A stretch of DNA of 64,000 bases from Spirochaetia bacterium (lineage in GTDB: Bacteria; Spirochaetota; Spirochaetia; UBA9216). Below are positions 18,043-40,375 of this stretch, piece by piece (within the stretch, counting starts at the first letter, position 1; the number at the start of each line of letters is the position of its first letter). The stretch is from positions 1,120,001 through 1,184,000 of the forward strand of contig CAXXYH010000004.1 of the NCBI GenBank assembly GCA_963677925.2, written 5' to 3'. Position numbers and translations under genes: made by a program. Below the pieces are notes generated by a model. It ran no database searches. It saw only the letters and a program-made list of their open reading frames with translations, and was not told the DNA's origin.

Positions 18043-19116
18043 TTGGCAGTTGAAATCGTTTATGAAGAAAATAATAAAATTGGTATAATTTTCCCTTTTG
18101 ATGCCCAGATTCTGGATATTGTACGCACAATACCCGGAAGACAATGGCAGCCCGCAAATAAAAAATGGACATTTCCGGATACTGATGCAAATATGCAGCA
18201 TTTTCTCTTATCATTATATAAAACCGGCAGGTTTAATGTGGATGAGAAGGCTCTCGAAAATCAGGAACCGTCTCATAGCCGCTATTTGGAAAAAATGCTT
18301 CAGTATCTAAAGCTTAGAGACTATAGTCCTCATACTATTGAAACGTATAAGATGCAGCTCAAGTGGTTCTTTGATAGAACAGAACTTTCTCCTTCAGAAG
18401 TCACGACCGAGGATATCAAATTATATCTGGAGAAAATGCGGACACTGGCGGGGTGTTCAAGAACATACTTTGTACAATGTGTGAGCGCCCTGAAAAGCTT
18501 CTATAAGTATGGTTATCCCGGCGGTCTGTTTAATCCTGCAGCATCGATTCCCATGCCGAAAAAAGAAAAGAAGTATCCGGATATTCTATCCAGGGAAGAA
18601 GTGAAGAAGATAATAACATCTCCGTCGAATATTAAGCACCGATTGCTATTATCATTAATATACTCTGCAGGTCTCCGAGTAAGCGAAGCCGTTATAATAC
18701 AGTTGCAGGATATTGATACCGATAGGAAAGTAATTCATATCAGGCAGGCAAAAGGACGAAAAGATAGATATGTAATGCTTTCAACTGAGATTATTAATAT
18801 GATTAATCAATACAGATCCAAAGTGATGGTGCATACATGGCTTTTTCCTGGCAGTGCAGGTGCGGATACCCATCTTGCTACAAGATCTGCACAGAATGCC
18901 TTTTATAAAGCTATAGAAGCAACAGGTATCGAAAAAAATGTAAGTATACATTCTTTAAGACATGCCTTTGCCACTCATCTGTTGGAAAACGGTACAGACC
19001 TGAGATATATTCAGGAGCTCTTAGGTCACCGTGATCCAAAAACAACACAGATTTATACACATGTAAGTACTAAAGACCTAAAAAATATAAATAGTCCACT
19101 GGACGGGTTATTATGA
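18043..19116 (+). CDS. Tyrosine recombinase, putative non-canonical integron integrase
   Basis: SAM-like domain (YSPHTIETY); catalytic R (GLRVSE), K (AKGRKDR), HxxR (HSLRH), H (LLGH), Y (TQIYTHV); directly abuts the cassette array. Confidence 0.93.
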   Translation: MAVEIVYEENNKIGIIFPFDAQILDIVRTIPGRQWQPANKKWTFPDTDANMQHFLLSLYKTGRFNVDEKALENQEPSHSRYLEKMLQYLKLRDYSPHTIETYKMQLKWFFDRTELSPSEVTTEDIKLYLEKMRTLAGCSRTYFVQCVSALKSFYKYGYPGGLFNPAASIPMPKKEKKYPDILSREEVKKIITSPSNIKHRLLLSLIYSAGLRVSEAVIIQLQDIDTDRKVIHIRQAKGRKDRYVMLSTEIINMINQYRSKVMVHTWLFPGSAGADTHLATRSAQNAFYKAIEATGIEKNVSIHSLRHAFATHLLENGTDLRYIQELLGHRDPKTTQIYTHVSTKDLKNINSPLDGLL

Positions 19117-19190
19117 ATAACAGGTTTATAAGGATTTAAGCTGGAGGGTTATATGAATGATATACCAGTTTATAATTCTGAGTTTATATG
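19105..19190 (+). promoter_or_regulatory. Putative attI-like primary recombination site
   Basis: Repeated GTT(T)ATA motifs (gggttattatgaat..gtttataa and gggttatatgaat..gtttataa); the first cassette left end TTATATGCAATGGACCCGAC starts at about 19184. Confidence 0.6.
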
Positions 19191-19265
19191 CAATGGACCC
19201 GACAAGAGGAAGACGCCCGGACCTCCGGCCGACGGGCGAAGAGACATAAAGGTGGGGGATTTTTT

Positions 19266-20735
19266 ATGCAAGATTTATATATAAAATATAATAAGAAAGA
19301 TAATAAAATTGATTTTGGGCAAACAAAAGGCTCAATAATCGAGATTACTATAAAGCCACCTTCAATCGTTAAAGAAACAAAAGAAACAGGCATAACGAGA
19401 ATATCTGCTATTCAAGAAGATTTTGATAATCTAATTTCGGGAAAGAAGATGATTGACGTTAATAAAACGACTCTCGAACATTGTTATATCTTGGATAAAA
19501 AGGATCCTTACCGATTAGCGGCGACAAATTTTATTTTAAAAAATGAAAAGGATATTGAAGAATATAGTGAAATTCCAAAAGAAAATGATGCTGGTATATA
19601 TAAAAACTATGTAAAAGCATTTTTAGAAGAATTTACAAGATGTACGAAACACATTCCGTTTGCTGAAAAAATTAAAGTCTATCCTTTACCATTGTTGACT
19701 CCATGTAATGTGGAAGTATTAGTAGGTAAAGATGGTGTGTGCTTTATTTTCTCATCAGAAAGTAGACCTGAAAAAGTAAGTGTTTCCTTAGATATAAATA
19801 AAATAATAGAGGAACTTCTTCTGCCTCATCCTACTAATAGAAGATATTCATCATATGGACCTAATACTATTTTTAATTTTATCTGCTCAGATGAGAATTT
19901 TATACATGTGGTAGGGGATGGGAATGCGTTTTTAGATTCTATGCTAGGGAATCCAGTATTTTTGATTTTTGAAAAATCGTTTCATGGTTATTATTCCAAT
20001 ATGAATTTTATAAGAAATTATCCTGATACGGGACTTCAAGTTAAAAAGAAAGTTGAATATTGTGAAATATTTGGTAATAACCATATCTCTAACTTTTCAC
20101 TTGAAAACGCAAGGAGTAGAGCTAGGATAGTTGCGTATAAATCAATTTTGAGTAGTGTTACAGGAAATGTTAATAAAGTAGAAGAACTTAAAAATGTCTT
20201 GATAGAATTGAAAAACAAAATAAACAATGATGTCGGTGAAATAGAAATTGAGAAATTTATTGATTCAAATAAATGGATTTTAGAGAAAGGGATAGGGTGT
20301 CAAAAATATTTTTCACAAATTTCGATACCGAAAGATTTATTATATGATGCTGATGGTGGAATTAAACCTGATAAATATATGATGAATAATGACGGATATT
20401 GTGATATTTTAGATTTAAAAAAACCATCAGCCAAACTAATTGTAATAAAGAATAACCGCAGTCATCAATCTAGTTCTTTAACCGAAGCGGAGGCACAAAT
20501 TGATAAATATATTGATTTCTCTCGTGAACCAAAGGTTAGAGATTATTTATTAACGCTTAATATAAAAATTACGAAACCTGATGGAATTGTATTGATTGGG
20601 AGAACCCCGAAGGAATATTTAAAAGAATGGATTGATATAAAAAAGAGATTACAAATAAAAGTATATACTTATGATGATTTAGTTAATAATTTGGATAATT
20701 TAATTGATTGGATAGATAAGATTCTTACAATTTGA
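19266..20735 (+). CDS. Cassette 1: Shedu (SduA/DUF4263)-like anti-phage nuclease
   Basis: C-terminal EKFIDSNKWIL...KPD...ILDLKKP...LTEAEAQ...PDGIVLIGR...VYTYDDL; RBS ggtggggg before ATG 19266. Confidence 0.75.
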   Translation: MQDLYIKYNKKDNKIDFGQTKGSIIEITIKPPSIVKETKETGITRISAIQEDFDNLISGKKMIDVNKTTLEHCYILDKKDPYRLAATNFILKNEKDIEEYSEIPKENDAGIYKNYVKAFLEEFTRCTKHIPFAEKIKVYPLPLLTPCNVEVLVGKDGVCFIFSSESRPEKVSVSLDINKIIEELLLPHPTNRRYSSYGPNTIFNFICSDENFIHVVGDGNAFLDSMLGNPVFLIFEKSFHGYYSNMNFIRNYPDTGLQVKKKVEYCEIFGNNHISNFSLENARSRARIVAYKSILSSVTGNVNKVEELKNVLIELKNKINNDVGEIEIEKFIDSNKWILEKGIGCQKYFSQISIPKDLLYDADGGIKPDKYMMNNDGYCDILDLKKPSAKLIVIKNNRSHQSSSLTEAEAQIDKYIDFSREPKVRDYLLTLNIKITKPDGIVLIGRTPKEYLKEWIDIKKRLQIKVYTYDDLVNNLDNLIDWIDKILTI

Positions 20736-20788
20736 ATTAAGAATCCAGACCTAACTCCGTTGAACGGTCTGGATGTCGGGTCCAAAGC

Positions 20789-20882
20789 ATAAAACAGGGG
20801 CTATGTGTATCGTCGCTATGCGCTCCTCGGGCTGCGCCACATACGGCTACGCCGTACGTCACATAACACCGGGACGTTATGA
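20789..20882 (+). repeat. attC-like site 1
   Basis: ataaaac-aggggctatgtg...cacataacacc-gggac-gttatga. Confidence 0.88.
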
Positions 20883-20993
20883 GCAATAAGCCCGACAAGT
20901 AAAAGACGCCCGGACCTCCGGCCGACGGGCAAAGAGAGACAGTGTGATAAAATATTATACTAAAAAAGTAAATATAGAATTAAGGGTTTTCAT

Positions 20994-21587
20994 ATGAAAA
21001 AAATAATATGTGTTCTAATCCTTTACATATTATCTATTTTTAGTTGTGTTACAACAGAAACTGTAAATATCAAGAAAGATAGTATGGAAAAGAGTGATTC
21101 TGTCTCTAAAGAAGAATTCAAAATTAGCATAAAAGAATTTGATGATATTTCAAAATATAAAAAGCTTATAAATTTATATGCATTTAAATATAGTGATGAG
21201 AGCAATACAGAATTTCGAGTTTTTACAGGTAGATGTTCAGCTTTTGTCAGGGACAATGGATATTCATCAATATTGCTGAACAATTCTGATGAGAGAGAAA
21301 TAATAAATAGTTATGAAGGTGATTATGAAAAAATTGCTATTATAAATGTCCATACAGTTGATTTAGATAAAGAAAATGGGAAAATTATAATAATCATGTT
21401 TGGAATAAATGATGATGATAAAGAAAAAATATTGTATGTACCTTTTTGGATTGCTACAGCAGAAGGTAAAAGTGTTGAGATTTTGAAATTAAAAAGTAGA
21501 GAAGAAGTTGGAAAATACATGATAGATTGTTTTTTTAATAATATGGAAATTTCTAATGAGTTGATTTATACATTAAGTGGAAATTAG
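20994..21587 (+). CDS. Cassette 2: hypothetical lipoprotein
   Basis: MKK + hydrophobic core + IFSC lipobox. Confidence 0.8.
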   Translation: MKKIICVLILYILSIFSCVTTETVNIKKDSMEKSDSVSKEEFKISIKEFDDISKYKKLINLYAFKYSDESNTEFRVFTGRCSAFVRDNGYSSILLNNSDEREIINSYEGDYEKIAIINVHTVDLDKENGKIIIIMFGINDDDKEKILYVPFWIATAEGKSVEILKLKSREEVGKYMIDCFFNNMEISNELIYTLSGN

Positions 21588-21660
21588 ATTATTCATAACA
21601 ATGAAGGATAAAGAATCCAGCCCTAACTCCGTTGGACGGTCTGGATGTCGGGCTTAAAGC

Positions 21661-21755
21661 TCATAACAGGGGCTATGTGCTTCGTCGCTATACGCTCCTC
21701 GGGCTGCGCCACATACGGCATTCGCCGTACGTCACATAACCCCGGGACGTTATAG
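21661..21755 (+). repeat. attC-like site 2
   Basis: tcataac...cccgggac-gttatag. Confidence 0.9.
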
Positions 21756-21848
21756 CGCAATGAGCCTGACAAGATGAAAATCGCCCGGACCTCCGGCCGA
21801 CGGGCGAAGATATATATATGCTAAGTATCCAAAAAAGGTGATATGTAA

Positions 21849-22385
21849 ATGAATTATCAAACAGTCTATGATATTTCTAAATCTTCTTATAATTGGGTAT
21901 TCCCCTTTTTAGGAATACTTATAACCATTTTATTAATAATTTTTACTAAAGTGGTAAGAAGAAACTTGAAAGTTTTAAATAGGATAGAGGCAGAAAAAGA
22001 AAAAAAGGAAATTTTCTATAATTTTAATAATCCATATGTGAGTAATATGTTGAGACGATTACCCATGGTTTTCACGATATTGGCTTCTATAGCGACCGTT
22101 TTTATAACTTATGGATCTATAAATTATTATGTGAAATTAAATGAAGTGATTCAAAATCAAGAGTATTCAGTTGTTGAAGATAAAATAAAAATTATTAATA
22201 AGTTTGAAACAAATAGAATTCAAAATTTCAAAGTTGGAAAATTTATTTTTAATGTTGCGGATATAAACTCCATCAGAATCTCATTTTGGAAATCTGGAAC
22301 ATATGAAGATTTTTTAGTTGAAGGTCAAGATGTTAAAGTTTATTTTTATGGAAAGTATATTTTGCGTGTTGATTTAATGAAATGA
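21849..22385 (+). CDS. Cassette 3: hypothetical two-TM membrane protein
   Basis: Two hydrophobic segments; RBS aggtga. Confidence 0.75.
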   Translation: MNYQTVYDISKSSYNWVFPFLGILITILLIIFTKVVRRNLKVLNRIEAEKEKKEIFYNFNNPYVSNMLRRLPMVFTILASIATVFITYGSINYYVKLNEVIQNQEYSVVEDKIKIINKFETNRIQNFKVGKFIFNVADINSIRISFWKSGTYEDFLVEGQDVKVYFYGKYILRVDLMK

Positions 22386-22520
22386 ATATGCATGCAAAAT
22401 TTCTATTCATATAGTTACTATTAAAGAGTAATTACTAAGAAATTTGAGTATTATTTTAGCATATAAGAGTGGGAATCCAGACCTAACTCCGTTGAACGGT
22501 CTGGATGTCAGGCTCAAAGC

Positions 22521-22843
22521 GCATAACAGGGGCTATATGCTCGTCGCTAAACGCTCCTTGGGCTTCGCCACATTTTTATTTTCTGAATTGGGTAATTGGG
22601 TACAGCATTTAACAAGAGATTTGGAGTAGTCAAAACCTTTGTCACAGTTCTGGCTAAAGACACTCCGCGCTGATCGCGCTACGTTCCAGAACTGCGCCAA
22701 GCCTCGGAGACTCGGCCGGTTTCGCTACTCAAATCGTCGTTAAATGCACAGAAATGTGCCAATAGTTTATGATTGAGAAATACGGGTAAGTGGTGGTAAA
22801 ATTAAGAAAAATAAAAACGTCATATAACCCCGGGGCGTTATGA
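22521..22843 (+). repeat. Long attC-like site 3 with a nested attC
   Basis: Same outer stem as the short sites; contains gcatttaac (22605)...gttaaatgc (22747). Confidence 0.88.
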
Positions 22844-22960
22844 GCAATGAGCCCAACAAGAGGAAGACGCCCGGACCTCCGGCCGACGGGCGAAGAATCG
22901 ATTGGTTTGATTTTTATAACTGATAAGTGATGTCAAAAGTAATATAAAGAATAGGTTGGT

Positions 22961-23680
22961 ATGGATATACAAGAGGATAAAGTAAATAATAATTTGATTG
23001 CGCAAGATTTAGAATTAGGAGTAATAACTATGGGGGCAGCAACGATTGATCAAAGACATAATTTTGCATACCAACATATGCACTCAGCTATTGAATTTAG
23101 GAATCAAACTTATAAAATTGAAGAAGATAATAAAAACGAAAAATTTGGATATTTTTTTGAGTTGATTAGAACATATGTAAGTGGTTGTATATTCTTTTCA
23201 GTGGCTTCAGTAGAGGCAAATATAAATGAAATTATATGTGATATTATTGAAAATAAAATAAAATTAGGTGAGTTTGAAAAAAAGAAAATTATTGAAATAA
23301 ATGATAGAGAGTCTACTCTTAAAAAATACGAAATCATATTAAACGAGGTAATGAAGTTTGAATTATCAAAAGATAAAGAAATTTATCAAAATATGAAAAT
23401 TTTAATAGATGTAAGAAATGCTTTTACTCATTTCAAACCAGAATGGGAATCAAATCAGAAATGGCATGATAAAATTGGAAGAAAATTATCTGGGAAAATC
23501 AAGATGACTCCATACATAGAAGATAGCAGTCCGATTTTTCCGATGCGTTGCATGACTTATGATTTTTGTTGTTGGTCCACAATATCAAGTTATAATTTTA
23601 TGAAAGAAATTTTTAGTTTACTATCAATAAGAAATAAATTTGAGAAATTTGAAGAAACAATTTATAAGGGTAGTAATTAA
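22961..23680 (+). CDS. Cassette 4: putative HEPN-domain protein
   Basis: Helical protein with SVEANIN and an RNAFTH (Rx4H) motif. Confidence 0.6.
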   Translation: MDIQEDKVNNNLIAQDLELGVITMGAATIDQRHNFAYQHMHSAIEFRNQTYKIEEDNKNEKFGYFFELIRTYVSGCIFFSVASVEANINEIICDIIENKIKLGEFEKKKIIEINDRESTLKKYEIILNEVMKFELSKDKEIYQNMKILIDVRNAFTHFKPEWESNQKWHDKIGRKLSGKIKMTPYIEDSSPIFPMRCMTYDFCCWSTISSYNFMKEIFSLLSIRNKFEKFEETIYKGSN

Positions 23681-23761
23681 TATAATTATATAGCTTATTT
23701 TTATAGTGTAAGGGAATCCAGACCTATCTCCGTCGAACGGTCTGGATGTTGGGCTCAAAGC

Positions 23762-24085
23762 GCATAACAGGGGCTATATGCATCGTCGCTAAATGCTCCT
23801 CGGGCTGCGCCACATTTTTATTTTGTAATTGGGTTAATAGGGTATAGCATTTAACAAAAGATTTGGAGTAGTCACAACCTTTGTCACAGTTCTGGCTAAA
23901 GACACTCCGCGCTGATCGCGCTGCGTTCCAGAACTGCGCCAAGCCTCGGTGACTCGGCCGGTTTCGCTACTCAAATCGTCGTTAAATGCACAGACATGTG
24001 CCAATAGTTTATGATTGTGAAATACGGGTAAGTGGTGGTAAAATTAAGAAAAATAAAAACGTCATATAACCCCGGGACGTTAGCT
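23762..24085 (+). repeat. Long attC-like site 4 with a nested attC
   Basis: Near-identical to site 3; inner element at 23847-23989. Confidence 0.88.
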
Positions 24086-24213
24086 GCAATTTCGGTCATG
24101 GTAATTATCTAATTAGTAGGAGCCCGCCTTCCATGGCGGTCAGGATAGAAGAAGTAAATATCTACATTTTGATACATTTTTTAAATAAACAATCTAAATA
24201 ATAAGGAATTTTA

Positions 24214-25040: not shown

Positions 25041-25367
25041 AGCTAACAGGGGTTATTTGCTTCGTCGCTATGTGCTCCTCGGGCTTCGCAACATTTTTAT
25101 TTTTGTAAATGGACGATATGACAAAAGGCATTTAACAATGATTTGCAGCAGTCCTGGCTATTTTCACGGTTTTAGCTAAAGACGTTCCGCGCTGATCGCG
25201 CTGCACTCTAAAACCGAGCCAATGCCGTAGGAGACTACGGCCGCCAGGCAGCTGAAATCGGCGTTAAATGCACAGACATGTGCCAATAGTTTATGATTGA
25301 GAAATACGGGTAAGTGGTGGTAAAATTAAGAAAAATAAAAACGTCATATAACCCCGGGACGTTATAC
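25041..25367 (+). repeat. Long attC-like site 5 with a nested attC
   Basis: agctaac...gttatac; inner element at 25128-25271. Confidence 0.88.
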
Positions 25368-25821: not shown

Positions 25822-25915
25822 GTATAACAGGGGCTATGTGCTTCGTCGCTATACGCTCCTCGGGCTGCGCCACATACGGCTTCGCCGTACGTCACATAAC
25901 CCCGGAACGTTATCT
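25822..25915 (+). repeat. attC-like site 6
   Basis: gtataac...cccggaac-gttatct. Confidence 0.9.
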
Positions 25916-26783: not shown

Positions 26784-26875
26784 AGATAACAAGGGTTACA
26801 CGCTCCGGCCATACGGCCTGCGGGCTGAGCCACATTCGGCTACACCGAACGTCGTGTAACCCTGGAACGTTATCT
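26784..26875 (+). repeat. attC-like site 7
   Basis: agataac-aagggttacac...gtgtaaccct-ggaac-gttatct. Confidence 0.88.
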
Positions 26876-27637: not shown

Positions 27638-27816
27638 AGATAACAGCGGCTATGTGCGGCGTCGCTAAACGCTCCTTGGCCTACGGCATATTTTGTTTTG
27701 GCATCGCTTTTGCGAAGAGGTAGAAAAATATAGGGTAAAGGCGTCGAATGCAAAAGTGCTGCCAATCGGCCTGTAGGGCCGACCACAAAACATCACATAA
27801 CCGCGGGACGTTATAG
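27638..27816 (+). repeat. attC-like site 8 (extended apical arm)
   Basis: agataac-agcggctatgtg...cacataaccgc-gggac-gttatag. Confidence 0.85.
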
Positions 27817-29156: not shown

Positions 29157-29479
29157 CTATAACAGGGGCTATATGCTCAGCCCATTCGGGCTTCGGGCTG
29201 CGCCACATTTTTATTTTATGGATTGGGCTATTTGGGTATAGCATTTAACAAAAGTTTTGGAGCAGTCCTGGCTATTGTCATGATTCTGGCAGAGACGTTC
29301 CGCGCTGATCGCGCTGCACTCCAGAATCACGCCAATGCGCGCGAAGACACGCGCCGCCATGCAGCTCAAAACGTCGTTAAATGCACAGACATGCGCCAAT
29401 AGTTTGTGATTGGTAAATACGGGTAAGTGGTGGTAAAATTAAAAAAATAAAAACGTCATATAACCCCGGGACGTTATGC
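29157..29479 (+). repeat. Long attC-like site 9 with a nested attC
   Basis: ctataac...gttatgc; inner element at 29241-29384. Confidence 0.88.
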
Positions 29480-29950
29480 GGACATCGCCGGAGCATGGTT
29501 ATGGGGTGGAGAAAGTTCCGAACAAGAAGTGATTACCAAATAGTTTGCAATATTCAATTCGCCCTAGATTGAGGAAGATTTTTGATTTTGATTTGGATGT
29601 TGTTGGAAGAAGGTCGTTAAAATTGACGAAGCTTGTTCTGGCGTGAAAGAAAAAGTATTGTCTTAAAATTATCAAAATCTTTTTTGAAGATGGAGCAGGT
29701 TTTACCATTTTGCAAGTCTGATTCACTCGCATAGCTCGTTGACTTGCGACTTAATAAAAATGATTGTTTTACTTGCAAAGGGCGAATAGAATATTGAGAA
29801 GAAATAGAAAGAGAAGATTGTATAGATTATTTGATTGATCGGAATCTTTCTCTAATAAAGGCGACGTCGCATAACAGGGCACATGCGGCTACGGGGTCAA
29901 GCCCCTTCGCCCAAATTGGCCTGCGGCCAACTTCGCATATGCCCGGGACG
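29474..29950 (+). other. Cassette 10: ORF-less structured cassette (includes attC-like site 10, 29869-29956)
   Basis: No credible + strand ORF; nested inverted repeats; diverged tandem copy follows. Confidence 0.8.
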
Positions 29951-30426
29951 TTATGCGGACATCGCCGTAGCATGATCTTGGGGTGGAGAAAGTTCCGAAC
30001 CAGAAGTGATTACCAAATAGTTTGCAATATTCAATTCGCCCTGGATTGAGGGAGATTTTGGATTTTGATTTTGTGGTTGTCAGAAGAAAGCCGTTGCATC
30101 TGACGAAGTTTATTCTGACGTGGAAAAAAGTATTGTTTTATAATTATCAAAATCTGCTTCGTGGACTTGGCAGGGTTTTCCGTTTGGCAAGTCTGCCTCA
30201 CTCGCTTTGCTCGTTGACTTGCAGGTGAAATAAAAATGATTGTGAAAGTCGCAAAGGGCGAATAGAATATTGGGTAGAAATGGTAAGAGGAGATTTGTTA
30301 GGTCATTTGATTGATCGGAATCTTTCTCTAATAAAGGCGACGTCGCATAACAGGGCACATGCGGCTACGGGGGCAAGCCCCTTCGCCCAAATTGGCCTGC
30401 GGCCAACTTCGCATATGCCCGGGACG
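29951..30426 (+). other. Cassette 11: ORF-less structured cassette, paralogue of cassette 10 (includes attC-like site 11, 30345-30432)
   Basis: 476 bp versus 477 bp; stems conserved while linkers have diverged. Confidence 0.8.
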
Positions 30427-30500
30427 TTATAGGAAATGCCCATCAAAATCTTTGAAAGATCCTCGCCATCCATGGCTCGGTTTAGAAGAATAGAAAGAAG

Positions 30501-31093: not shown

Positions 31094-31188
31094 CTATAAC
31101 AGGGGCTATGTGCTTCGTCGCTATGCGCTCCTCGGGCTGCGCCACATACGGCTTACGCCGTACGTCACATAACCCCTGGACGTTAGCT
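31094..31188 (+). repeat. attC-like site 12
   Basis: ctataac...gttagct. Confidence 0.9.
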
Positions 31189-31982: not shown

Positions 31983-32075
31983 AGCTAACAGGGGCTATGT
32001 GCATCGTCGCTATACGCTCCTCGGGCGCGCCACATACGGCTTCGCCGTACGTCACATAACCCCGGGACGTTAGAC
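31983..32075 (+). repeat. attC-like site 13
   Basis: agctaac...gttagac. Confidence 0.9.
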
Positions 32076-32128
32076 GAAATCACGAACCTAAGAGAAAGAG
32101 GATGCTTGCCATCCTTGGCAAGCAAAGA

Positions 32129-32157
32129 TTGACAAATTTATGTAATTACTATATAAT
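32129..32157 (+). promoter_or_regulatory. Consensus sigma70 promoter of the mazEF cassette
   Basis: TTGACA-17 bp-TATAAT overlapping gtaattac palindromes. Confidence 0.85.
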
Positions 32158-32176
32158 TACAATAAAGAGGTGTATT

Positions 32177-32425
32177 ATGTTAGTTTCAGTGGTTCCTATA
32201 GGCAATTCAAAAGGAATACGAATTCCGAAGAGCATTTTGCAACAGTTAAATATTGAAGAAAAAGTTGAATTAGAAGTGCATAATACAGAAATACTGATTA
32301 GACCAATAAAGAAAAAGCCAAGGGAAGGATGGTCCGAAGAGTTTATGAAGATGCATCAAAATGGGGATGATTCATTACTTTTAGACAATTTGACTGAACA
32401 GGGTGATTTTGAATGGGAATGGTAA
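32177..32425 (+). CDS. mazE: Cassette 14: AbrB/MazE antitoxin
   Basis: IGNSKGIRIPK motif; RBS gaggtg. Confidence 0.9.
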   Translation: MLVSVVPIGNSKGIRIPKSILQQLNIEEKVELEVHNTEILIRPIKKKPREGWSEEFMKMHQNGDDSLLLDNLTEQGDFEWEW

Positions 32426-32742
32426 TTCATCAATATGAGGTATATTTAATAAACTTAGATCCAACAGTTGGCCATGAAATAAAAAAGACAAGACCTTGTT
32501 TAGTGATTTCACCAAATGAAATGAATGAAACAATCCAGACTATTATTATCGCTCCAATGACAACAAAATCACATACATATCCTACTCGTGTAGCTGTTAA
32601 GTTTCAAAATAAAGATGGATGGATTGTTTTAGATCAATTAAGAACTGTTGATAGGAAGAGATTAATTAAAAAGATTGGTAAAATAAATAGAAAAGAAGTA
32701 GATCTCGTCAAGAATGTGCTACAGGAAATGTTAATAGATTAA
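32413..32742 (+). CDS. mazF: Cassette 14: PemK/MazF toxin
   Basis: LDPTVGHEIKKTRPCLVIS...DQLRTVD. Confidence 0.94.
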   Translation: MGMVIHQYEVYLINLDPTVGHEIKKTRPCLVISPNEMNETIQTIIIAPMTTKSHTYPTRVAVKFQNKDGWIVLDQLRTVDRKRLIKKIGKINRKEVDLVKNVLQEMLID

Positions 32743-32791
32743 AGCCAAACAACATCCATGTTGCTTGGCTTTGAAGAAGGTTCGTGACATC

Positions 32792-32882
32792 GTCTAACAA
32801 GGGTTATTCGCTCGTCACTACGCTCCTCGGGCTGCGCCACATACGGCTTCGCCGTACGTCACATAACCCCGGAACGTTATCC
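32792..32882 (+). repeat. attC-like site 14
   Basis: gtctaac...gttatcc. Confidence 0.88.
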
Positions 32883-33591: not shown

Positions 33592-33643
33592 AGAAGAAAG
33601 CCGTAATTACGTCCTGTAATTACGGCTTAAGCCACAATACTTC

Positions 33644-33725
33644 AGATAACAAGGGTTACACGCTCCGGCCATTCGGCCTACGCCCAAATTGCTGCGCAAC
33701 TTCGCTTAACCCTGGAACGTTAGCT
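33644..33725 (+). repeat. attC-like site 15
   Basis: agataac-aagggtta...taaccct-ggaac-gttagct. Confidence 0.88.
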
Positions 33726-33846
33726 GAAATGCAACCGCTAAGAGAAAGACGCCCGGACCTCCGGTCGACGGGCGATCATGAAGAGAAAGAATATAAAAAT
33801 TGACATGATATATATCAAGGTATATACTTAAAATAGAGGTGGGTAT

Positions 33847-34077
33847 ATGCAAACGGCAAAAATTTTTCAAAATGGAAGATCTCAAGCTATTAGGATACCG
33901 AAAGAATATCAGTTTAAAGGTGATGAAGTATACATTCAAAAGCATGGCGATGCTGTACTGTTGATTCCGCATGAAAAAGCTTGGGAAGTCTTTATGGAAG
34001 GCATAAATGAGTTCACAGAAGATTTTATGAAAGATGGAAGAGAACAAGGCGAAGTACAAGAGAGAGAAGCATTTTAA
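33847..34077 (+). CDS. vapB: Cassette 16: VapB antitoxin
   Basis: AKIFQNGRSQAIRIPKEY; promoter TTGACA-17-TATACT upstream. Confidence 0.94.
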   Translation: MQTAKIFQNGRSQAIRIPKEYQFKGDEVYIQKHGDAVLLIPHEKAWEVFMEGINEFTEDFMKDGREQGEVQEREAF

Positions 34078-34475
34078 TGTATTTACTTGATACTAATATT
34101 TGTATATTCGCGATTAAACGTAAGCCTTCAAAAGTATTTGAATTAATAAAAGAAAGATCTAAAGAAGGAATATATATTTCATCATTAACAGTAGCAGAGT
34201 TGGAATTTGGTGTTCAAAATAGTGAACGAGAAGAGCAAAACAGAATAGCTCTTCTAAAATTTCTTTCTGTATTCAATATTTTAAATTTTGATGATTCAGA
34301 CGCAATAGATTATGGGAGGATGAAAGTAGATTTAAGAAAGAATGGTAATGTAATTGGACCAATTGATATGTTATTGGCTGCGCAAGCTTTGAATAAAGAT
34401 ATGATATTTGTAACCAATAATGTAAAAGAATTTGAAAGAGTAAAAGGTTTAAGAATAGAAGATTGGAGTGTTTAG
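34077..34475 (+). CDS. vapC: Cassette 16: VapC toxin
   Basis: YLLDTNICI, AELEFG, IGPIDMLLAAQA, VTNNVKEFERV. Confidence 0.95.
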   Translation: MYLLDTNICIFAIKRKPSKVFELIKERSKEGIYISSLTVAELEFGVQNSEREEQNRIALLKFLSVFNILNFDDSDAIDYGRMKVDLRKNGNVIGPIDMLLAAQALNKDMIFVTNNVKEFERVKGLRIEDWSV

Positions 34476-34529
34476 AAGAATCCAGCCCTAACTCCGTCGA
34501 ACGGTCTGGATGAGGAGCGGTGGCACTAC

Positions 34530-34623
34530 AGCTAACAGGGACTATGTGCTCGTCGCTTTATGCTCCTCGGCCTTCGCCACATACGGCTTACGCCGTACGT
34601 CACATAACCCCGGGACGTTATGT
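34530..34623 (+). repeat. attC-like site 16
   Basis: agctaac...gttatgt. Confidence 0.88.
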
Positions 34624-34686
34624 TCAATGCCCGGCTTAAGAGCTTAATAGTCCTCGGCAATCCGTGGCCTCGGGAAGGAAGAAGAA

Positions 34687-35676
34687 ATGAAAAGTAATGC
34701 AGAAAAAACAATACAATCTCTTAGAAAGATTAATGATTTCCCTTTTTATATCGCAAAATATTATGGTGACTATAAAATTACTGAATATAAGAATGGAGCG
34801 ATAAAAAGTCCAAATGATATAGTTCCTTTTTTTAAAAATCTTTTTTCAGAATTAGGACAACCAACAGAGTTAAGTTTTCCAAAGCCTCCTGAAATCAATT
34901 TAGGTTGTAGTGCTTTTTTCTGCCGCGATAAAAAAAACTCTGCTATCATTGGTAAAAACAATGACTGGAAAAGAGATCCAATTCTTTTACTCAAGACAAC
35001 ACCAGATGAAGGCTATACATCATTTTCTATGGTTAATTTGAGTTTCTGTGATTTATTTCAATTAGGTTCTTTTGATCACAATCTATTATTATCACCTTAT
35101 GTTCCACTCGATGGTATGAATGAGATTGGGCTTGTTGTAACAACATTGGCTGTTCATGAAGGTTCAGAATATCCGCTAAAATCAAATCATTTATCAGTTG
35201 GTGATTTTAATTTAGTAAGAATTATCCTTGATACATGTGCCAATATAGATGAAGCAATCGTTATAATTGATCAGTATAATATAATGCAAACAGGTCCGCT
35301 TCCAATACATCTTCTTATCGCTGATAAAAGTGACTCTTGTATAGTTGAATTCTTTGATGGAAAGAAACATATAAAAAGAGATCAAGATTTAAACTACTTA
35401 ACAAATTTTCTTAAACTGAAAACTTCTGATTATGAGAATCAAAGGAATCTTTGTAATCGGTATCAGACTATAGAAAGACGGTTTAAGCAAGATAAAATTA
35501 TCATTAAAATTCATGAAGCAAAGAAAATTTTTTCAGAAGTATCAGTTTGTACTGGAAATTTTCAAATTCCAAGTACCATCTATTCAACAATATATTGTCC
35601 GAATGATTTAAGTCTGAAAATAAAGATAGGTGATGAATCAAAATATTACTCGTTATCGCTACAGGAGAGTAAATGA
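34687..35676 (+). CDS. Cassette 17: Ntn hydrolase (C45/choloylglycine hydrolase-like)
   Basis: GCSAF nucleophile, GKNNDW, DGMNEIGL, HLLIAD, LTNF. Confidence 0.85.
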   Translation: MKSNAEKTIQSLRKINDFPFYIAKYYGDYKITEYKNGAIKSPNDIVPFFKNLFSELGQPTELSFPKPPEINLGCSAFFCRDKKNSAIIGKNNDWKRDPILLLKTTPDEGYTSFSMVNLSFCDLFQLGSFDHNLLLSPYVPLDGMNEIGLVVTTLAVHEGSEYPLKSNHLSVGDFNLVRIILDTCANIDEAIVIIDQYNIMQTGPLPIHLLIADKSDSCIVEFFDGKKHIKRDQDLNYLTNFLKLKTSDYENQRNLCNRYQTIERRFKQDKIIIKIHEAKKIFSEVSVCTGNFQIPSTIYSTIYCPNDLSLKIKIGDESKYYSLSLQESK

Positions 35677-36239
35677 CAGATATTGAAATCCTGGGGCTAA
35701 ATAATAGCTTCTCTTTTGAAGAATTAAAGAGAGCTTTCAGACAAAAATCAAAACAATTTCATCCTGATAAAAATCAGGATAACTTGAATAGCCATCTTGC
35801 GATGATTCAATTGAATCAAGCATATTCAAATCTTCAGAAGAAAATCAAAGAAAAGCCTGTTTTGAATAATCGGGACCTATCCATAGATACTGCATATTCA
35901 ATATATAAAGATGGAATCTCAAAGTTTCAGAGTATCCATCCTTCCAAATGGAAATCATATTCTATCGATGGACTTTTTGATCCAAGTGCAATTAACACTC
36001 ATTCTGAAACACCTTTAATTTTACAATCTTTAATAACACTGATGGCAGAAGCTTATCATCGTTTTTCAACTGTAGTGAACGAACATGAAAATAGTTCTTG
36101 GTATTCAGATTCAATAACGAAAATGAAAGAAATTGAGAAAATGACACAACGGTATATCAAGATAAAGGAATCATATGAAATAGAAATGAATGATAGAAAG
36201 CGGATCAGAAAATCTGTCCATGGACTTTCTGAAAATTGA
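35673..36239 (+). CDS. Cassette 17: J-domain protein
   Basis: ILGL...LKRAFRQKSKQFHPDKN...LNQAY. Confidence 0.88.
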   Translation: MTDIEILGLNNSFSFEELKRAFRQKSKQFHPDKNQDNLNSHLAMIQLNQAYSNLQKKIKEKPVLNNRDLSIDTAYSIYKDGISKFQSIHPSKWKSYSIDGLFDPSAINTHSETPLILQSLITLMAEAYHRFSTVVNEHENSSWYSDSITKMKEIEKMTQRYIKIKESYEIEMNDRKRIRKSVHGLSEN

Positions 36240-36261
36240 AACCAAACCTGCCGGGCAATAA

Positions 36262-36408
36262 ACATAACAGCGAATATGCGGTTGCGCTTCGCTCCACCCA
36301 AATTGCTTCTTTGATAAAATCTGAAAAAAGTATGTTATACTTTTTCCAGATTTTATCAAGCCCCGCAAGGGGGCTGAAGCAACTTCGCATATTCGCGAAA
36401 CGTTATAT
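36262..36408 (+). repeat. attC-like site 17 (extended)
   Basis: acataac-agcgaatatgcg...cgcatattcgc-gaaac-gttatat. Confidence 0.87.
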
Positions 36409-36557
36409 GATATAATTGAGCAGGCGGCAAATAGACACTCGCCGTCCTGGCTTGTGTGTAAGAGAATATAAATGATTTAACAATTAATAAATGATTAAAA
36501 ATTTCAAATAGAATATAAAATCATTTAGGTTTATTTTTAGGAGAAGAAAGAAGAAGA

Positions 36558-37043
36558 ATGAAAAAATATCATTTAAATAATCGTCCAAACCGTGAATTAA
36601 CAAATGAGATTGATATTACAGCAATTTTAGAAAGTGGGAAATATGCTGTAATTGCTATGTGTCGTGATAATGAACCATATATTGTTACTTTAAGTTATGG
36701 TTATGATTCATTAAAAAAATGTTTATATTTTCATTGTTCACCTATTGGGCTAAAGCTCGATTTTATAAAATATAATGCGAAAGTTTGTGCGACAGTAATT
36801 GAAGATGGTGGATATATAGTTGATGAATGTGGTCATAATTATAGAACAGCAGTTTTCTGGGGTAATATAAATATAGTTTTAGATTTAGATGAAAAAAAGC
36901 ATGGAATGAAAATGATACTAAATCATCTTGAGGAAAATCCATCAATAATTAAGGATAAGTTATTAAAGTCAGGCGACTTTTATTCAAAGATGGAAATATT
37001 AAGGCTTGATATTTCTCAGATTCATGGGAAAGCAGGAAGATGA
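36558..37043 (+). CDS. Cassette 18: pyridoxamine 5'-phosphate oxidase/Nim-like flavin-binding protein
   Basis: PYIVTLSYGY, LYFHC, GLKL, KVC motifs. Confidence 0.85.
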   Translation: MKKYHLNNRPNRELTNEIDITAILESGKYAVIAMCRDNEPYIVTLSYGYDSLKKCLYFHCSPIGLKLDFIKYNAKVCATVIEDGGYIVDECGHNYRTAVFWGNINIVLDLDEKKHGMKMILNHLEENPSIIKDKLLKSGDFYSKMEILRLDISQIHGKAGR

Positions 37044-37116
37044 TTTTAAGAGAAGTCGAAAGGCCCAAAAAACGTCCATATATTTGGGGGGGTAAATGAT
37101 AGTGCTCAAGTACGTC

Positions 37117-37211
37117 ATATAACAGGGGCTATGTGCTTCATCGCTGTGCGCTCCTCGGGCTGCGCCACATACGGCTTGCGCCGTACGTCACATATCCCCG
37201 TGAAGTTAGAT
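37117..37211 (+). repeat. attC-like site 18
   Basis: atataac...gttagat; slightly degenerate. Confidence 0.82.
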
Positions 37212-37229
37212 TCAATATGTCAATAAACA

Positions 37230-37880
37230 ATGAAAAAGGAGATTCCTATGACACAATTTGGTAAACCAACAGGGAAAATGGGCAAAATACTGGCAAAAGG
37301 ATTTGCTTTTGGTCATAAGGATTTTTATAAGAACACAGCATTCATTGCTGGATTAACAGAATCTGATGAATTGCTGGAAATCGGGTTTGGTTCCGGAATG
37401 TTTATTAATAAATATGCAAAGCATATAAAACATATTGCCGGATTAGATATTTCACCGGATATGGTTGAATTAGCAAAAGAGATTAACAGTAAATTGCTTG
37501 ATGAAAAAAAGCTAGAACTTATAGAAGGAAACATTTTATCATTACCTTGGAATGATAATTCTTTTTCAGTCATCATTAGTATAGAATCATTTTTCTTTTG
37601 GGAAAATGTCGAAAAAGCCGTGTTAGAAATTTATCGTGTTCTAAAACCGGGAGGAAGGATTGTTATAGAAATGGCATTTAATTTGGAAGACGGTCAAGAT
37701 CATACAAAAGATATAAAGAAAATTGGATTTCAACTTTATGAGGAGAAGAATATCCGGAATCTTTTGAACGAATCAGGTTTTATTGATGTTTCTTTCAATT
37801 ATTATAAAGCATTTTGGATTCCTATTAAGGGATATATTGTCACAAAAGGTATGATCTTTAAGGCTTGTAAGCCCCATTGA
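37230..37880 (+). CDS. Cassette 19: class I SAM-dependent methyltransferase
   Basis: LLEIGFGSG, GLDIS, RVLKPGG. Confidence 0.9.
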   Translation: MKKEIPMTQFGKPTGKMGKILAKGFAFGHKDFYKNTAFIAGLTESDELLEIGFGSGMFINKYAKHIKHIAGLDISPDMVELAKEINSKLLDEKKLELIEGNILSLPWNDNSFSVIISIESFFFWENVEKAVLEIYRVLKPGGRIVIEMAFNLEDGQDHTKDIKKIGFQLYEEKNIRNLLNESGFIDVSFNYYKAFWIPIKGYIVTKGMIFKACKPH

Positions 37881-37888
37881 CATACTAC

Positions 37889-37967
37889 AGCTAACAGGGG
37901 CTATACGCTCCTCGGGCTGCGCCACATTCGGCTGCGCCGAACGGCACATAATCCCGAAACGTTATGT
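37889..37967 (+). repeat. attC-like site 19 (internally deleted)
   Basis: agctaac-aggggctatacgctcc lacks one arm; ends gttatgt. Confidence 0.8.
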
Positions 37968-37992
37968 GTCATCTGTTGAAATATCTGGAGGT

Positions 37993-38472
37993 ATGATGAA
38001 TATAAATAAGGGAGTTGAATTAAGAAAAGAAGGCAAACTAATAGAATCAAATAACTTCTTTATAAAACTTGCAATTGAATACCCTAATGATGCCATAGTT
38101 CAGTATCAATGTGCATGGAGCTTTGATGTTTTAGAGAAAGAGACAGAAGCGATCTATTATTATGAGAAAGCAATAGAACTTGGTCTGCAAGATAATGATC
38201 TGAAAGAAGCATTGCTAGGTTTGGGTAGTACTTACCGGTCAATTGGTGAATATGAGAAATCAAAACAGACATTTGAGAAGGGAATCTCATTATTCAATGA
38301 TAATTCCTTAAAGGTTTTTTATGCGATGACCTTATACAATTATGGAGAATATTCCAGGTCTATGGATTTATTACTCAATATTATTGCGAACACAACCCAA
38401 GATAAATCTATATTAACATATAAAAAGGCAATAAAGTTTTATTCAGGGAGATTGGATGAGGTATTTAACTAA
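37993..38472 (+). CDS. Cassette 20: TPR protein
   Basis: EAIYYYEKAIELG...LGLGSTYRSIGEY; RBS ggagg. Confidence 0.88.
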   Translation: MMNINKGVELRKEGKLIESNNFFIKLAIEYPNDAIVQYQCAWSFDVLEKETEAIYYYEKAIELGLQDNDLKEALLGLGSTYRSIGEYEKSKQTFEKGISLFNDNSLKVFYAMTLYNYGEYSRSMDLLLNIIANTTQDKSILTYKKAIKFYSGRLDEVFN

Positions 38473-38484
38473 GGAAAGAATGAC

Positions 38485-38560
38485 ACATAACAGCGAATAT
38501 ACGGTTCCGCTTTGATTCACCCAAACTGGCCGTTGACCAGCTTCGCATATTCGCGGGATG
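38485..38560 (+). repeat. attC-like site 20 with its GTT crossover deleted
   Basis: acataac-agcgaatat...atattcgc-ggga is followed directly by tggcaataagcac. Confidence 0.8.
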
Positions 38561-38629
38561 GCAATAAGCACTATATTTATTGAGAAAAGCTGAATCTGCC
38601 ATCCATGGCAGATAAAAGGATTTAAATGC

Positions 38630-39454
38630 ATGATTTATGAATTGGACAAAGCAGATTATTATAGGGCCGAGAATCTTTTTACCAAGTTGAAAACAAACAC
38701 AGCAATTGAGTCAATTTTTAACCATAAAAACGAAGCTCGTCTGTTTGTTGATAATCCAAGTAAACCGAAAAGCATCTTCATTCTTAATTCATGGGCTTAC
38801 TACTATCTGGCTGGTGAATCCGAAAATGAAAAATTTAATTCTTCATTAGTTAAGTTTCTTGAAAATGATTTTTTTCCAGAATGTCTCAAAACAAATTCTA
38901 ATACAGTTTTCGCATTTTATCCCGATAGTAACCAGTGGTGTAAAAAATCTGAAGAAATATTTTCTCATTTGAATATTGAAAAATCGGGAAAAACCTATTT
39001 TAACTATGATGAAAAACGTTTCAATAAAAACTGGAGAGAAAATATTCCTGAAGGTTTCAGTGTAAAAAGAATCAGCTCGGAAATTATTAATTCAATTGAA
39101 AATAATGAAGAATTTGTAAATTACATAAAATTTGCCTGGACAACAACTGATCAGTATTTTGACAAAGGATTGGGATACTGTGCTATTGATGCAAATGATT
39201 TTGCAACAATTTGTATTTCTGTTTTTGCTTCTGAAAATGAGCGAGAAGTGGGGATTAAAACATTTCCTGACTTTCAAAGAAAGGGATTGGCATATGTTAC
39301 AGCCTGTGCCTATATTGAAGAATGTTTAAAAAATAATTTTGTTCCTGTCTGGTCATGTTTTAGCGAAAATAAAGTATCAATAAGATTAGCAGAAAAACTT
39401 GGCTACAAAATCGAAGCCTCGCATCCGATTTATTTTGCGAAGATTGGTGATTGA
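38630..39454 (+). CDS. Cassette 21: GNAT acetyltransferase
   Basis: EVGIKTFPDFQRKGLA...PVWSC...NKVSIRLAEKLGY. Confidence 0.9.
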   Translation: MIYELDKADYYRAENLFTKLKTNTAIESIFNHKNEARLFVDNPSKPKSIFILNSWAYYYLAGESENEKFNSSLVKFLENDFFPECLKTNSNTVFAFYPDSNQWCKKSEEIFSHLNIEKSGKTYFNYDEKRFNKNWRENIPEGFSVKRISSEIINSIENNEEFVNYIKFAWTTTDQYFDKGLGYCAIDANDFATICISVFASENEREVGIKTFPDFQRKGLAYVTACAYIEECLKNNFVPVWSCFSENKVSIRLAEKLGYKIEASHPIYFAKIGD

Positions 39455-39514
39455 AGAAAACGTATCGCTGGGCATCCATGCCTCTCTACAGGCTTGCATT
39501 CCTGTGCTTGCTGC

Positions 39515-39663
39515 CTATAACAGAGAATATACACTGCGGCTCGCCTTGGCATTCTGCAAATCGCCTTTGACAAATACCTGATGAAATGTGATACAATTTC
39601 CCATATATTTATTACCCCTATAGGGGTGCCAGGCGACTTTCGTATATTCGAGGAACGTTAGGC
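39515..39663 (+). repeat. attC-like site 21 (extended)
   Basis: ctataac-agagaatatac...gtatattcga-ggaac-gttaggc. Confidence 0.8.
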
Positions 39664-39682
39664 CATAATTTATGGAGAAAAA

Positions 39683-40141
39683 ATGGATGTACATATAAGT
39701 AAATTAAACTCCAATACGGATGTTCCTATGGATTTATTGCTACTTGCCGATCCATCGGAAGAATTAGTTAAAAGTTATCTTAAAAAGGGAACATGCTATA
39801 TCGCTGAATTTGATGAAGAAACAGTTGGCGTTATTCTTATTGTGGAGACAAAACCACATACTGTTGAAGTTATGAATCTTGCGGTTAAAGAAGAACTGCA
39901 TAATAACGGTATAGGCAAAAAACTCCTCTTGCACGTTATTGAAGAAATAAAAAAAAGTGATACAAAAACAATTGAAATCGGAACTGGAAATCCCGGAGTA
40001 GTACAAATGTTATTGTATCAAAAGTGTGGTTTCCGTATCGTAGGGATAGATTTTGATTTTTTTAGAAGGACGCATCCTGAACCGATATATGAGAATGGAA
40101 TAGAATGCCGTGATATGATAAGAATGAGAATTGAGTTATAG
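39683..40141 (+). CDS. Cassette 22: GNAT acetyltransferase
   Basis: LLLLADPS, HNNGIGK, LYQKCGFR. Confidence 0.92.
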   Translation: MDVHISKLNSNTDVPMDLLLLADPSEELVKSYLKKGTCYIAEFDEETVGVILIVETKPHTVEVMNLAVKEELHNNGIGKKLLLHVIEEIKKSDTKTIEIGTGNPGVVQMLLYQKCGFRIVGIDFDFFRRTHPEPIYENGIECRDMIRMRIEL

Positions 40142-40175
40142 TATGGAGGGTCTTAACGGTTTTATCCATAAACAG

Positions 40176-40257
40176 CCCTAACAGCGAATATGCGGTTCTA
40201 CATGGCTTCAACCAAATTAGCCTGCGGCCAACTTCGCATATTCGCGGGACGTAATCT
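40176..40257 (+). repeat. attC-like site 22 (last site; GTT mutated to GTA)
   Basis: ccctaac-agcgaatatgcg...cgcatattcgc-gggac-gtaatct. Confidence 0.8.
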
Positions 40258-40375
40258 GAAATGCCACCGCGAAGATGTAGCTGCCCGGGTCTCCGGCCGG
40301 CGGGTGATTCTGCAGAGAAAGAATTAAAAACTGTCACGATATATCAAGGTCTATACTTTAAGTAGAGCTGAGTAT

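Follow-up and report, generated by a model that had tools for sequence, protein, structure and literature searches.

The stretch of DNA analysed here (hereafter the window) comprises 64,000 nucleotides (nt) of the genome of a Spirochaetia bacterium (contig CAXXYH010000004.1, positions 1,120,001 to 1,184,000). At 18.0-44.8 kb it contains a block of low GC content (about 0.33 versus 0.46), which opens with the gene of a tyrosine recombinase and continues with an array of gene cassettes bounded by attC recombination sites. An earlier note on this DNA had proposed that the recombinase, which lacks the signature of the integron integrases (IntI), represents a separate lineage of cassette-shuffling enzyme with its own att architecture. 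Here, we describe this locus, its relatives in other genomes, and a canonical integron of the same genome. Genomes, contigs and loci carry G, C and L numbers where they have to be told apart, G000 being the genome of the window. The core of the locus consists of the following features:

18043-19116, + strand: tyrosine recombinase of 357 amino acids (aa), with a TTG start and a TGA stop at 19114-19116 (translation)
19117-19187, + strand: attI-like region, with a GTTAT box at 19148-19152, an AGTTTAT repeat at 19167-19173 and the crossover GTT at 19182-19184
19183-40251, + strand: array of 22 co-oriented cassettes, 476-1785 nt each beyond the first, with boundaries placed at the R' GTTs

The cassette array and its attC sites

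The attC sites were mapped by their R'' (..AAC) and R' (GTT..) boxes, and 22 of them were found in the window, from 20789-20882 to 40176-40257. These are the 22 AAC...GTT sites of the earlier note, every one of which was recovered at its place, with folding and covariation; likewise, the 22 cassettes are co-oriented as it had claimed, with every cassette open reading frame (ORF) on the + strand. The cassettes are bounded by R''/L''/L'/R' boxes, and the R' of one site is complementary to the next R''. In the folded short sites, an R box of 7 bp is separated by an unpaired spacer from an L box that contains one mismatch, and the loop beyond is variable; in an alignment of 15 such sites pairing is kept through two-sided changes at 12 of the 19 predicted pairs. 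We refer to this form as A-type: it measures 80-100 nt, and its spacers are 1 nt (R'' side) and 5 nt (R' side) long. This (1,5) pattern occurs in 15 of the 22 sites, and in 19 of them the R'-side spacer is 3-4 nt longer than that on the R'' side. A covariance model built from the 15 short A-type sites of the window (R1) gave 17 matches over the 5.04-Mb genome, 16 of them in the window array (15 being the training set) and one elsewhere. Covariation and the near-confinement of R1 matches to the array therefore indicate that the attC sites are not chance palindromes.

A second form, which we call B-type, is about 138 nt long and has spacers of 4 and 3 nt, a pattern present in 16 of 18 sites, as well as a bulged G; a covariance model of this form is referred to as R2. 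Sites 3, 4, 5 and 9 of the window are composites of about 323 nt, in which the loop of an A-type site contains a complete B-type attC with flanks of about 40 nt (left) and about 100 nt (right). The individual sites, with the evidence for each in brackets, are as follows:

20789-20882, + strand: attC 1, A-type (box mapping, R1)
21661-21755, + strand: attC 2, A-type (box mapping, R1)
22521-22843, + strand: attC 3, composite, with a B-type attC at 22607-22745 in the A-type loop (box mapping, R2 153.2 bits)
23762-24085, + strand: attC 4, composite, with a B-type attC at 23849-23987 inside (box mapping, R2 147.4 bits)
25041-25367, + strand: attC 5, composite, with a B-type attC at 25130-25269 inside (box mapping, R2 115.7 bits)
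25822-25915, + strand: attC 6, A-type (box mapping, R1)
26784-26875, + strand: attC 7, A-type (box mapping, R1)
27638-27816, + strand: attC 8, A-type with a long loop (box mapping)
29157-29479, + strand: attC 9, composite, with a B-type attC at 29243-29382 inside (box mapping, R2 148 bits)
29869-29956, + strand: attC 10, A-type, ending a non-coding cassette (box mapping, R1)
30345-30432, + strand: attC 11, A-type, ending the paralogous non-coding cassette (box mapping, R1)
31094-31188, + strand: attC 12, A-type (box mapping, R1)
31983-32075, + strand: attC 13, A-type (box mapping, R1)
32792-32882, + strand: attC 14, A-type, of the MazE/MazF cassette (box mapping, R1)
33644-33725, + strand: attC 15, A-type (box mapping, R1)
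34530-34623, + strand: attC 16, A-type (box mapping, R1)
36262-36408, + strand: attC 17, A-type with an extra loop hairpin (box mapping, R1)
37117-37211, + strand: attC 18, A-type (box mapping, R1)
37889-37967, + strand: attC 19, A-type, short (box mapping, R1)
38485-38565, + strand: attC 20, A-type with a degenerate R' that has no GTT (box mapping, R1)
39515-39663, + strand: attC 21, A-type with a long loop (box mapping)
40176-40257, + strand: attC 22, A-type with a degenerate R' (GTAAT), the last of the array (box mapping, R1)

Rfam returned no match in the window at gathering thresholds or at E<=0.1, and a BLASTN search of plasmids with one A-type attC gave no match. No protein of the window exceeds the IntI cut-off, the sole protein of G000 above it being encoded on contig C3. 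By the criterion that two attC sites or more occur with no IntI bearing the extra domain nearby, the array would be classed as an attC-site cluster without an integron integrase (CALIN).

The array starts at an attI-like site

The first cassette begins at the GTT at 19182-19184, which lies 66 nt past the recombinase stop, so that the start just downstream of the gene stands as previously claimed and the distance of about 70 bp given for it is slightly too long. In the sister genome G001, the recombinase protein is 96% identical, and the DNA of the two genomes is 94% homologous over 17698-19184, up to and ending at this GTT. Beyond it, G001 carries a different first cassette, which begins at its own GTT. 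A homology break at the GTT with different first cassettes is the signature of cassette turnover at attI, and it coincides with the insertion point at 19184 that had been proposed. The two-box motif 'GGTTATATG...ATAAnT..GAGTT' recurs past the stop codon in other close homologues. A promoter-like site matching at 9 of 12 positions lies at 18982-19011 (+ strand), in the 3' end of the recombinase gene; in a scan for a cassette promoter (Pc), the number of promoter-like sites in the region (15) was not above that in shuffled sequences (13.0 +/- 3.6). Logan contigs aligned to the array contained many repeat-driven joints and were uninformative about excision.

An IntI-related recombinase without the IntI insertion

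The domain order of the recombinase runs from a HARP-like region (residues 1-66) through a SAM-like core-binding domain to the catalytic domain, and a Pfam search returned Phage_integrase, SAM_4 and a weak HARP match. Residues R212, K237, H303, R306, H329 and Y338 are invariant in an alignment of 11 family members. Against the NCBIfam model NF040815, whose product name is 'site-specific tyrosine recombinase/integron integrase', the protein scores 232.5 bits, above the cut-off of 220. Against TIGR02249, the model for integron integrases, it scores 194.2 bits, under the cut-off of 265, and the alignment falls into two stretches in which model positions 181-235 are skipped. What is missing, between the KGxKxR strand and the xLFP/HxLRH motif, is the IntI-type insertion of about 35-40 aa with its I2 helix and ALxxKY region; the pairwise alignment has gaps of 31 and 8 aa at this place. 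KGRKDR and WLFP are 23 residues apart, a short gap without insertion as the earlier note had it, if not the 'about 21 aa' that it had counted. From KGxKxR to HxLRH, the recombinase spans 60 aa and its relatives 58-63 aa, compared with 62-66 aa in E. coli XerC/XerD and 100 aa in both IntI1 and the canonical IntI of G000 itself. Span and TIGR02249 score thus both bear out the claim that the IntI signature is absent.

A C-terminal SP[LIMFV][DE] motif follows the catalytic tyrosine in the family members (10 of 10 and 16 of 16) and in IntI proteins (11 of 11), and in none of 12 Xer proteins. The ratio of nonsynonymous to synonymous substitution rates (dN/dS) between the recombinase genes of G000 and G001 is 0.07. 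The predicted full-length structure has a predicted local distance difference test score (pLDDT) of 83.5, and its best Foldseek match is VchIntIA 2A3V (E 1.6e-16), followed by XerA 5HXY (E 3.1e-16).

The N-terminal residues 1-66 were modelled as a beta-beta-alpha-beta-beta-alpha fold, with a pLDDT of 87.8 for the domain model. Pfam HARP weakly matches this domain in 6 of 11 family members (best E 2.3e-6), and the best Foldseek match of the domain model is the HARP substrate-recognition domain of SMARCAL1, 4O66 (E 0.043, probability 0.98, template modelling score 0.58). Together, these predictions are suggestive of a HARP-like domain; a Protein Atlas search with the N-domain, which gave scores of 0.85-0.86, provided leads only. 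The same domain is present on some canonical IntIs of the class (G012, G022). One of these, at L137 (G012:C5, 437-1618), is a canonical IntI of 454 bits that bears the recombinase-type N-domain and is directly followed on its 3' side by a four-link cassette chain; with both the N-domain and a downstream chain, it therefore has an arrangement intermediate between the two integron types. In tandem at 8472-11041 of a contig from an archaeal metagenome-assembled genome (Undinarchaeales; L045), two relatives of the recombinase are encoded at full length, each with the N-domain (38% and 33% identity); this contig stops 34 bp past the second gene.

In phylogenetic analysis, a careful maximum-likelihood tree was calculated from 50 rows, 25 rows of a 75-row set having been dropped, and the columns of the insertion were outside those kept. 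The 11 IntI proteins are monophyletic (11/11, support 100/100), and the nine members of the recombinase clade are likewise monophyletic (9/9, 100/100) and lie outside the IntI clade; the Xer proteins are monophyletic at 99/93. A branch supported at 100/100 joins IntI, the recombinase clade and further insertion-less clades against XerC/D, with inner nodes unresolved, and the canonical IntIs that bear the N-domain branch at the base of IntI. A quick tree of all 75 rows agrees with the 50-row tree. The recombinase lineage is thus related to IntI yet separate from it, as had been proposed. Nor is the recombinase the housekeeping resolvase of G000, which has a XerC/XerD-like pair at C4:2273242 and C4:2277961 that clusters with E. 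coli XerC/XerD.

Homologous recombinases are linked to arrays

Homologues of the recombinase (E<=1e-60) were found in 32 of 401 genomes of the class, 12 of them close. Cassette chains were called by the rule that each R' be the reverse complement of the next R'', in a strict version whose background was a single two-link chain per Mb. Less strict chain and link detection was noisy (background of 880 links per Mb), as was a generic hairpin detector based on AAC...GTT and L-box complementarity, which is strand-blind (49 versus 48 matches on the two strands of the window).

Co-oriented A-type arrays lie directly 3' of the gene in all eight informative close loci (G000, G001, G004, G006, G007, G012, G056 and G234; 45-96% identity), while the remaining four of the 12 end less than 350 bp from the gene. 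The same gene-array arrangement is seen in the more distant homologues of G237, G261 and G177, and array-adjoining homologues range overall from 36 to 96% identity; in G039, a two-link chain lies downstream of the homologue. Matches of A-type lie in the array beside the recombinase in 29 of 30 cases in G001 and 9 of 10 in G007, and in all 7 cases in G004 and all 16 in G234. In the reverse direction, a scan for R1-type sites found them in 24 of 151 genomes of the class, and an insertion-less relative adjoins four of the seven extra A-type clusters inspected (G018, G054, G136 and G029), in some of them divergently.

The comparison with other phyla covered 80 listed loci around more distant relatives. 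R1 detects attC in only one of these (E<0.01), because other phyla use other attC sequences, and the strict detector finds chains in 12. The chains begin just 3' of the gene in six loci (L052, L054, L058, L064, L065 and L113), and in L068 the arrangement is divergent. In Winogradskyella ursingii (L058) and Flavobacteriaceae bacterium S0862 (L064), for example, the first GTT lies about 40-70 nt past the stop and each R' is the exact 9-nt complement of the following R''. The classical arrays of the Bacteroidota relatives start 35-100 nt past the stop, and their attC spacers are asymmetric too, being (3,6) in 7 of 12 sites. The enzymes have no insertion (spacing 58-63 aa) and score below the TIGR02249 cut-off, and none of their five genomes has a match over the IntI cut-off. 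Insertion-less IntI-related recombinases occur in this class, in Flavobacteriaceae/Cyclobacteriaceae and in one locus of an Acidobacteriota metagenome-assembled genome, most of them with a HARP-like N-domain, and the linkage to arrays that the earlier note had put up as a check extends from the close loci to distant clades and to Bacteroidota.

A canonical integron of the same genome uses another attC type

Contig C3 of G000 encodes a canonical IntI (C3:128199-129455, + strand), of which the earlier note had been unaware; it scores 382.9 bits against TIGR02249 and is 48.6% identical to IntI1. It belongs to a classical sedentary integron (C3:52346-129455; loci L009 and L010), whose array runs divergently over about 75 kb (C3:52346-126781) and has no fewer than 37 B-type attC sites. 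R2 gave 43 matches in G000; among the 41 matches listed, 37 are in this array and four in the window, all four inside the composite sites. Similarly, G001, G007, G004 and G237 have large B-type arrays beside the canonical intI and one or two B-type matches in the other array, and R1, run with filters off, gave no A-type match in the 89 kb that surround the canonical intI in G001, G007 and G012. The strict chain detector also finds arrays beside the canonical IntIs of related genomes, that of G012 being downstream of intI. The distribution of A-type and B-type sites across the arrays therefore means that attC types are almost fully segregated by recombinase. That the C3 IntI heads its own array of the other type favours a separate att architecture for the window enzyme, in line with the earlier proposal.

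Intact copies of the canonical intI are present in G000, G001, G006, G007, G012 and G237. Those of G004, G234 and G261 are split or interrupted by stops, and in G177 (92% complete) and G293 (99% complete) the gene was not found. Despite a broken or unfound intI, all five of these last genomes have arrays and the recombinase gene.

Exchange between the two arrays appears to have left a trace in G000. The three cassettes nearest the canonical intI form one block with B-type R' boxes at both ends. It opens with about 100 nt and the right half of an A-type site, followed by a MazE/MazF cassette with an A-type attC, and closes with a 344-aa ORF, the left half of an A-type site and a B-type attC; half-composite sites thus bound the block. 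The MazE/MazF cassette is 99.76% identical to window positions 32049-32880 (cassette 14). Most simply, recombination of B-type with B-type sites would have moved a segment lying between two composite sites, and a block bounded by B-type crossovers would fit an IntI that acts on B sites but not on A sites.

Interpretation and alternative explanations

From the anatomy and crossover point of the locus, the recurrence of gene and array together in other genomes, the phylogenetic tree and the separation of the two attC forms, we consider it probable that the window holds a second, non-canonical integron, with the insertion-less recombinase as its cognate integrase, an activity deduced from sequence comparison. 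The platform would be an IntI-related but separate tyrosine recombinase, without the insertion and I2 helix and with a HARP-like N-domain. Cassettes with A-type attC sites would be inserted at the attI-like site, at the crossover GTT 19182-19184, and shuffled, the reactions presumably being catalysed by the adjacent recombinase. This enzyme would read the asymmetric spacer in place of the extrahelical bases that are read by the IntI insertion. The canonical IntI on C3 would run a separate classical integron of B-type attC, and the four composite sites would seem to allow cassette blocks to be exchanged between them.

Several observations weigh against this interpretation. The canonical IntI of G000 is intact and under purifying selection (dN 0.13, dS 1.35), and could act in trans on the window array; A-type cassettes are also present in the canonical array, where they are confined to the three-cassette block. 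In addition, the IntI insertion has been held necessary for IntI activity (Messier & Roy 2001, as cited in the passages available). With regard to linkage, the strict chain detector cannot assign strand and joins only five of the window sites in one chain. The array of G293 lies on the strand opposite to the homologue, the G012 homologue has an internal stop, and in the subclade of G005 and G002 no array was seen in the 0.9-1.5 kb downstream (1.5 kb in G005). Three of the seven extra A-type clusters (G102, G032 and G078) had no recombinase in the stretch inspected. Finally, the lack of IntI matches over the cut-off in the five Bacteroidota genomes is a count for genomes of unstated completeness.

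The foremost alternative is that the array is a CALIN-type store served in trans by the canonical IntI of C3, and that the adjacent recombinase does another job, for instance binding the attI-like site or protecting it, acting in regulation, or resolving dimers locally, and does not recombine attC sites itself. The intact canonical IntI of G000, and those of G001, G006, G007, G012 and G237, speak for it, as do the cassette common to both arrays at 99.76% and the diversity of attC sites that IntI enzymes are known to accept, as far as the published accounts at hand go. However, it leaves unexplained why A-type sites are excluded from canonical arrays, why the transferred block has B-type crossovers, why arrays start at a conserved site beside the gene across genera, and why they occur in genomes with a broken intI and in Bacteroidota that have no IntI over the cut-off. 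We therefore regard it as unlikely.

A still less likely arrangement, which we would call improbable, is that both enzymes are needed, with the recombinase acting on the double-stranded attI-like site and the canonical IntI on folded attC in a mixed synapse. Such a division of labour would fit the finding that in G000 and G001 each of the two genes is intact and shows purifying selection, their co-occurrence in 6 of the 11 array-bearing genomes examined, and the C-terminal SPLD tail common to both enzymes; but arrays and the recombinase persist in the other five of these genomes, in which intI is broken or not found, five Bacteroidota genomes have arrays without an IntI, and the attC types are segregated.

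It is hardly credible that the recombinase serves as integrase to a genomic island with an old array as cargo and that their adjacency is historical rather than functional: its gene does open the low-GC block at 18.0-44.8 kb, and a 12-nt direct repeat, TATTGCTGATTC, at 17992-18003 and 40486-40497 brackets recombinase and array, but such a 12-mer is within chance in AT-rich DNA (4 found, 1 expected), its flanks do not align, the difference in first cassette exactly at the GTT between sister genomes shows turnover there, and the order of gene and array is found again in homologues of 36-58% identity and in a second phylum. Flanking direct repeats were rejected as island att sites, since just this one 12-mer was available and it lies within chance.

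Returning to the second, non-canonical integron, a broader proposition follows the same lines, and we see it as evenly balanced between true and false. Insertion-less IntI-related recombinases may be a widespread, possibly ancestral class of integron integrase, which would have its own class of folded attC with an asymmetric spacer, no need of the I2 helix, and an orthogonal existence beside IntI, with composite attC sites as adapters. If this proposition is true, the IntI insertion would have been added later, with which the basal position of the N-domain-bearing IntIs in the tree is consistent, and many arrays filed as CALINs or missed would be complete integrons.

Cassette cargo and small elements

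The first cassette (19188-20735) encodes a 515-aa protein with a Shedu SduA_C domain at its C-terminus (E 1.9e-12), which therefore places a candidate anti-phage gene closest to attI. Five toxin-antitoxin pairs are present in the array (BrnT/BrnA, Phd/ParE, MazE/MazF, PIN/Phd and MazE/PIN), together with GNAT acetyltransferases, a methyltransferase, an inositol monophosphatase and two non-coding cassettes, and this cargo is typical of sedentary chromosomal integrons. The two non-coding cassettes (29473-29950 and 29950-30426) are paralogues of about 476 nt with no consistent ORF and no Rfam match. Relatives of them occur in at least six places within 20 kb of the G001 array, one as the first cassette.

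Two hairpins recur at cassette ends. The first, which is conserved and GC-rich and has the loop CCTCC (CCCGGACCTCCGGCCGACGGGC), is found at cassette 5' ends, in the window at 19216, 20909, 21784, 22870, 26902, 27843, 31215 and 33752. Its 15 genome copies all lie within the two arrays, eight in the window and seven on C3, and it may be an element of the 5' untranslated region. The second, CCAGACC..GGTCTGG, stands directly 5' of attC at some cassette 3' ends (20745, 21617, 22477, 23718, 31935 and 34482); six of its seven copies genome-wide are in the window.

Low-GC DNA continues for about 4.5 kb past the last attC (40258-44830), with six ORFs and no recognisable attC. These ORFs, which include a FliG_C-like protein, a methyltransferase and a ferredoxin-like protein, may be decayed cassettes.

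Significance

The IntI-specific domain underlies both the detection and the theory of integrons, and is held to enable the reading of folded attC hairpins. According to the passages of the literature available, IntI is defined by this extra domain and software tools call integrases by it, CALINs are unexplained clusters, and surveys have reported almost no integrons in Bacteroidetes. No description of insertion-less recombinases heading attC arrays was found in the full-text literature, a search whose scope excluded subscription journals and supplementary tables, so that a prior report is possible.

If cassette arrays are indeed run by a conserved lineage that has no such domain, the integron census would be too low, particularly for Bacteroidota, and part of the unexplained abundance of CALINs would have a simple cause. 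The recognition of attC would have a second structural solution, and the origin of integrons would become testable by comparing the two types of enzyme. In addition, two attC classes kept apart in one genome and bridged by composite sites would be natural orthogonal recombination systems, of interest to synthetic biology.

Comparison with known systems

Among the simple tyrosine recombinases, Smyshlyaev et al. (2021, PMC8138268) note an 'integron-like' subgroup whose insertion 'is not fully conserved', and this would accommodate a clade of IntI relatives without the insertion. In the parts of that paper available, however, the insertion is called essential for integron function and insertion-less members are not tied to attC arrays.

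The XerA and Xer recombinases (NF040815; 5HXY, 4A8E) share with the window enzyme the core size, the domain order, an NF040815 score over the cut-off and, for XerA, a Foldseek match at E 3e-16. In contrast to these, the window enzyme groups with IntI (100/100), has the SPLD tail, and adjoins a cassette array rather than dif.

As a CALIN, in a genome with an IntI encoded elsewhere, is how the window array would be filed under the published definition, which goes by the extra domain to recognise IntI, as far as the definition is given in the passages at hand. Unlike the clusters in those passages, which are not described as headed by a recombinase, the array has at its head a conserved, intact IntI-related recombinase and an attI-like site, an arrangement that recurs across genomes.

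Inverted integrons, as in the Treponema denticola group, and archaeal integrons share with the window the co-orientation of integrase and cassettes and an attI immediately 3' of the gene, and some canonical IntIs of the class, those of G012 and G022, have the N-domain in common with the window enzyme. Integrases of the T. denticola group carry the IntI-specific domain. Those of archaeal integrons are reported to do so as well, and the archaeal attI position is as given in the portions of the reports available. The window enzyme differs from both in having no such domain.

Classical integrons, such as those of IntI1 and VchIntIA (2A3V), are alike in having a tyrosine recombinase beside attI, a G|TT crossover, folded attC sites with R''/L''/L'/R' boxes, toxin-antitoxin and defence cargo, and the SPLD tail. 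They differ in the span of the integrase (100 aa versus 60 aa here), and the window enzyme scores under the TIGR02249 cut-off and branches outside the IntI clade. The window system, for its part, has an extra N-domain, a recombinase gene co-oriented with its array, and attC sites with the asymmetric 1/5 spacer.

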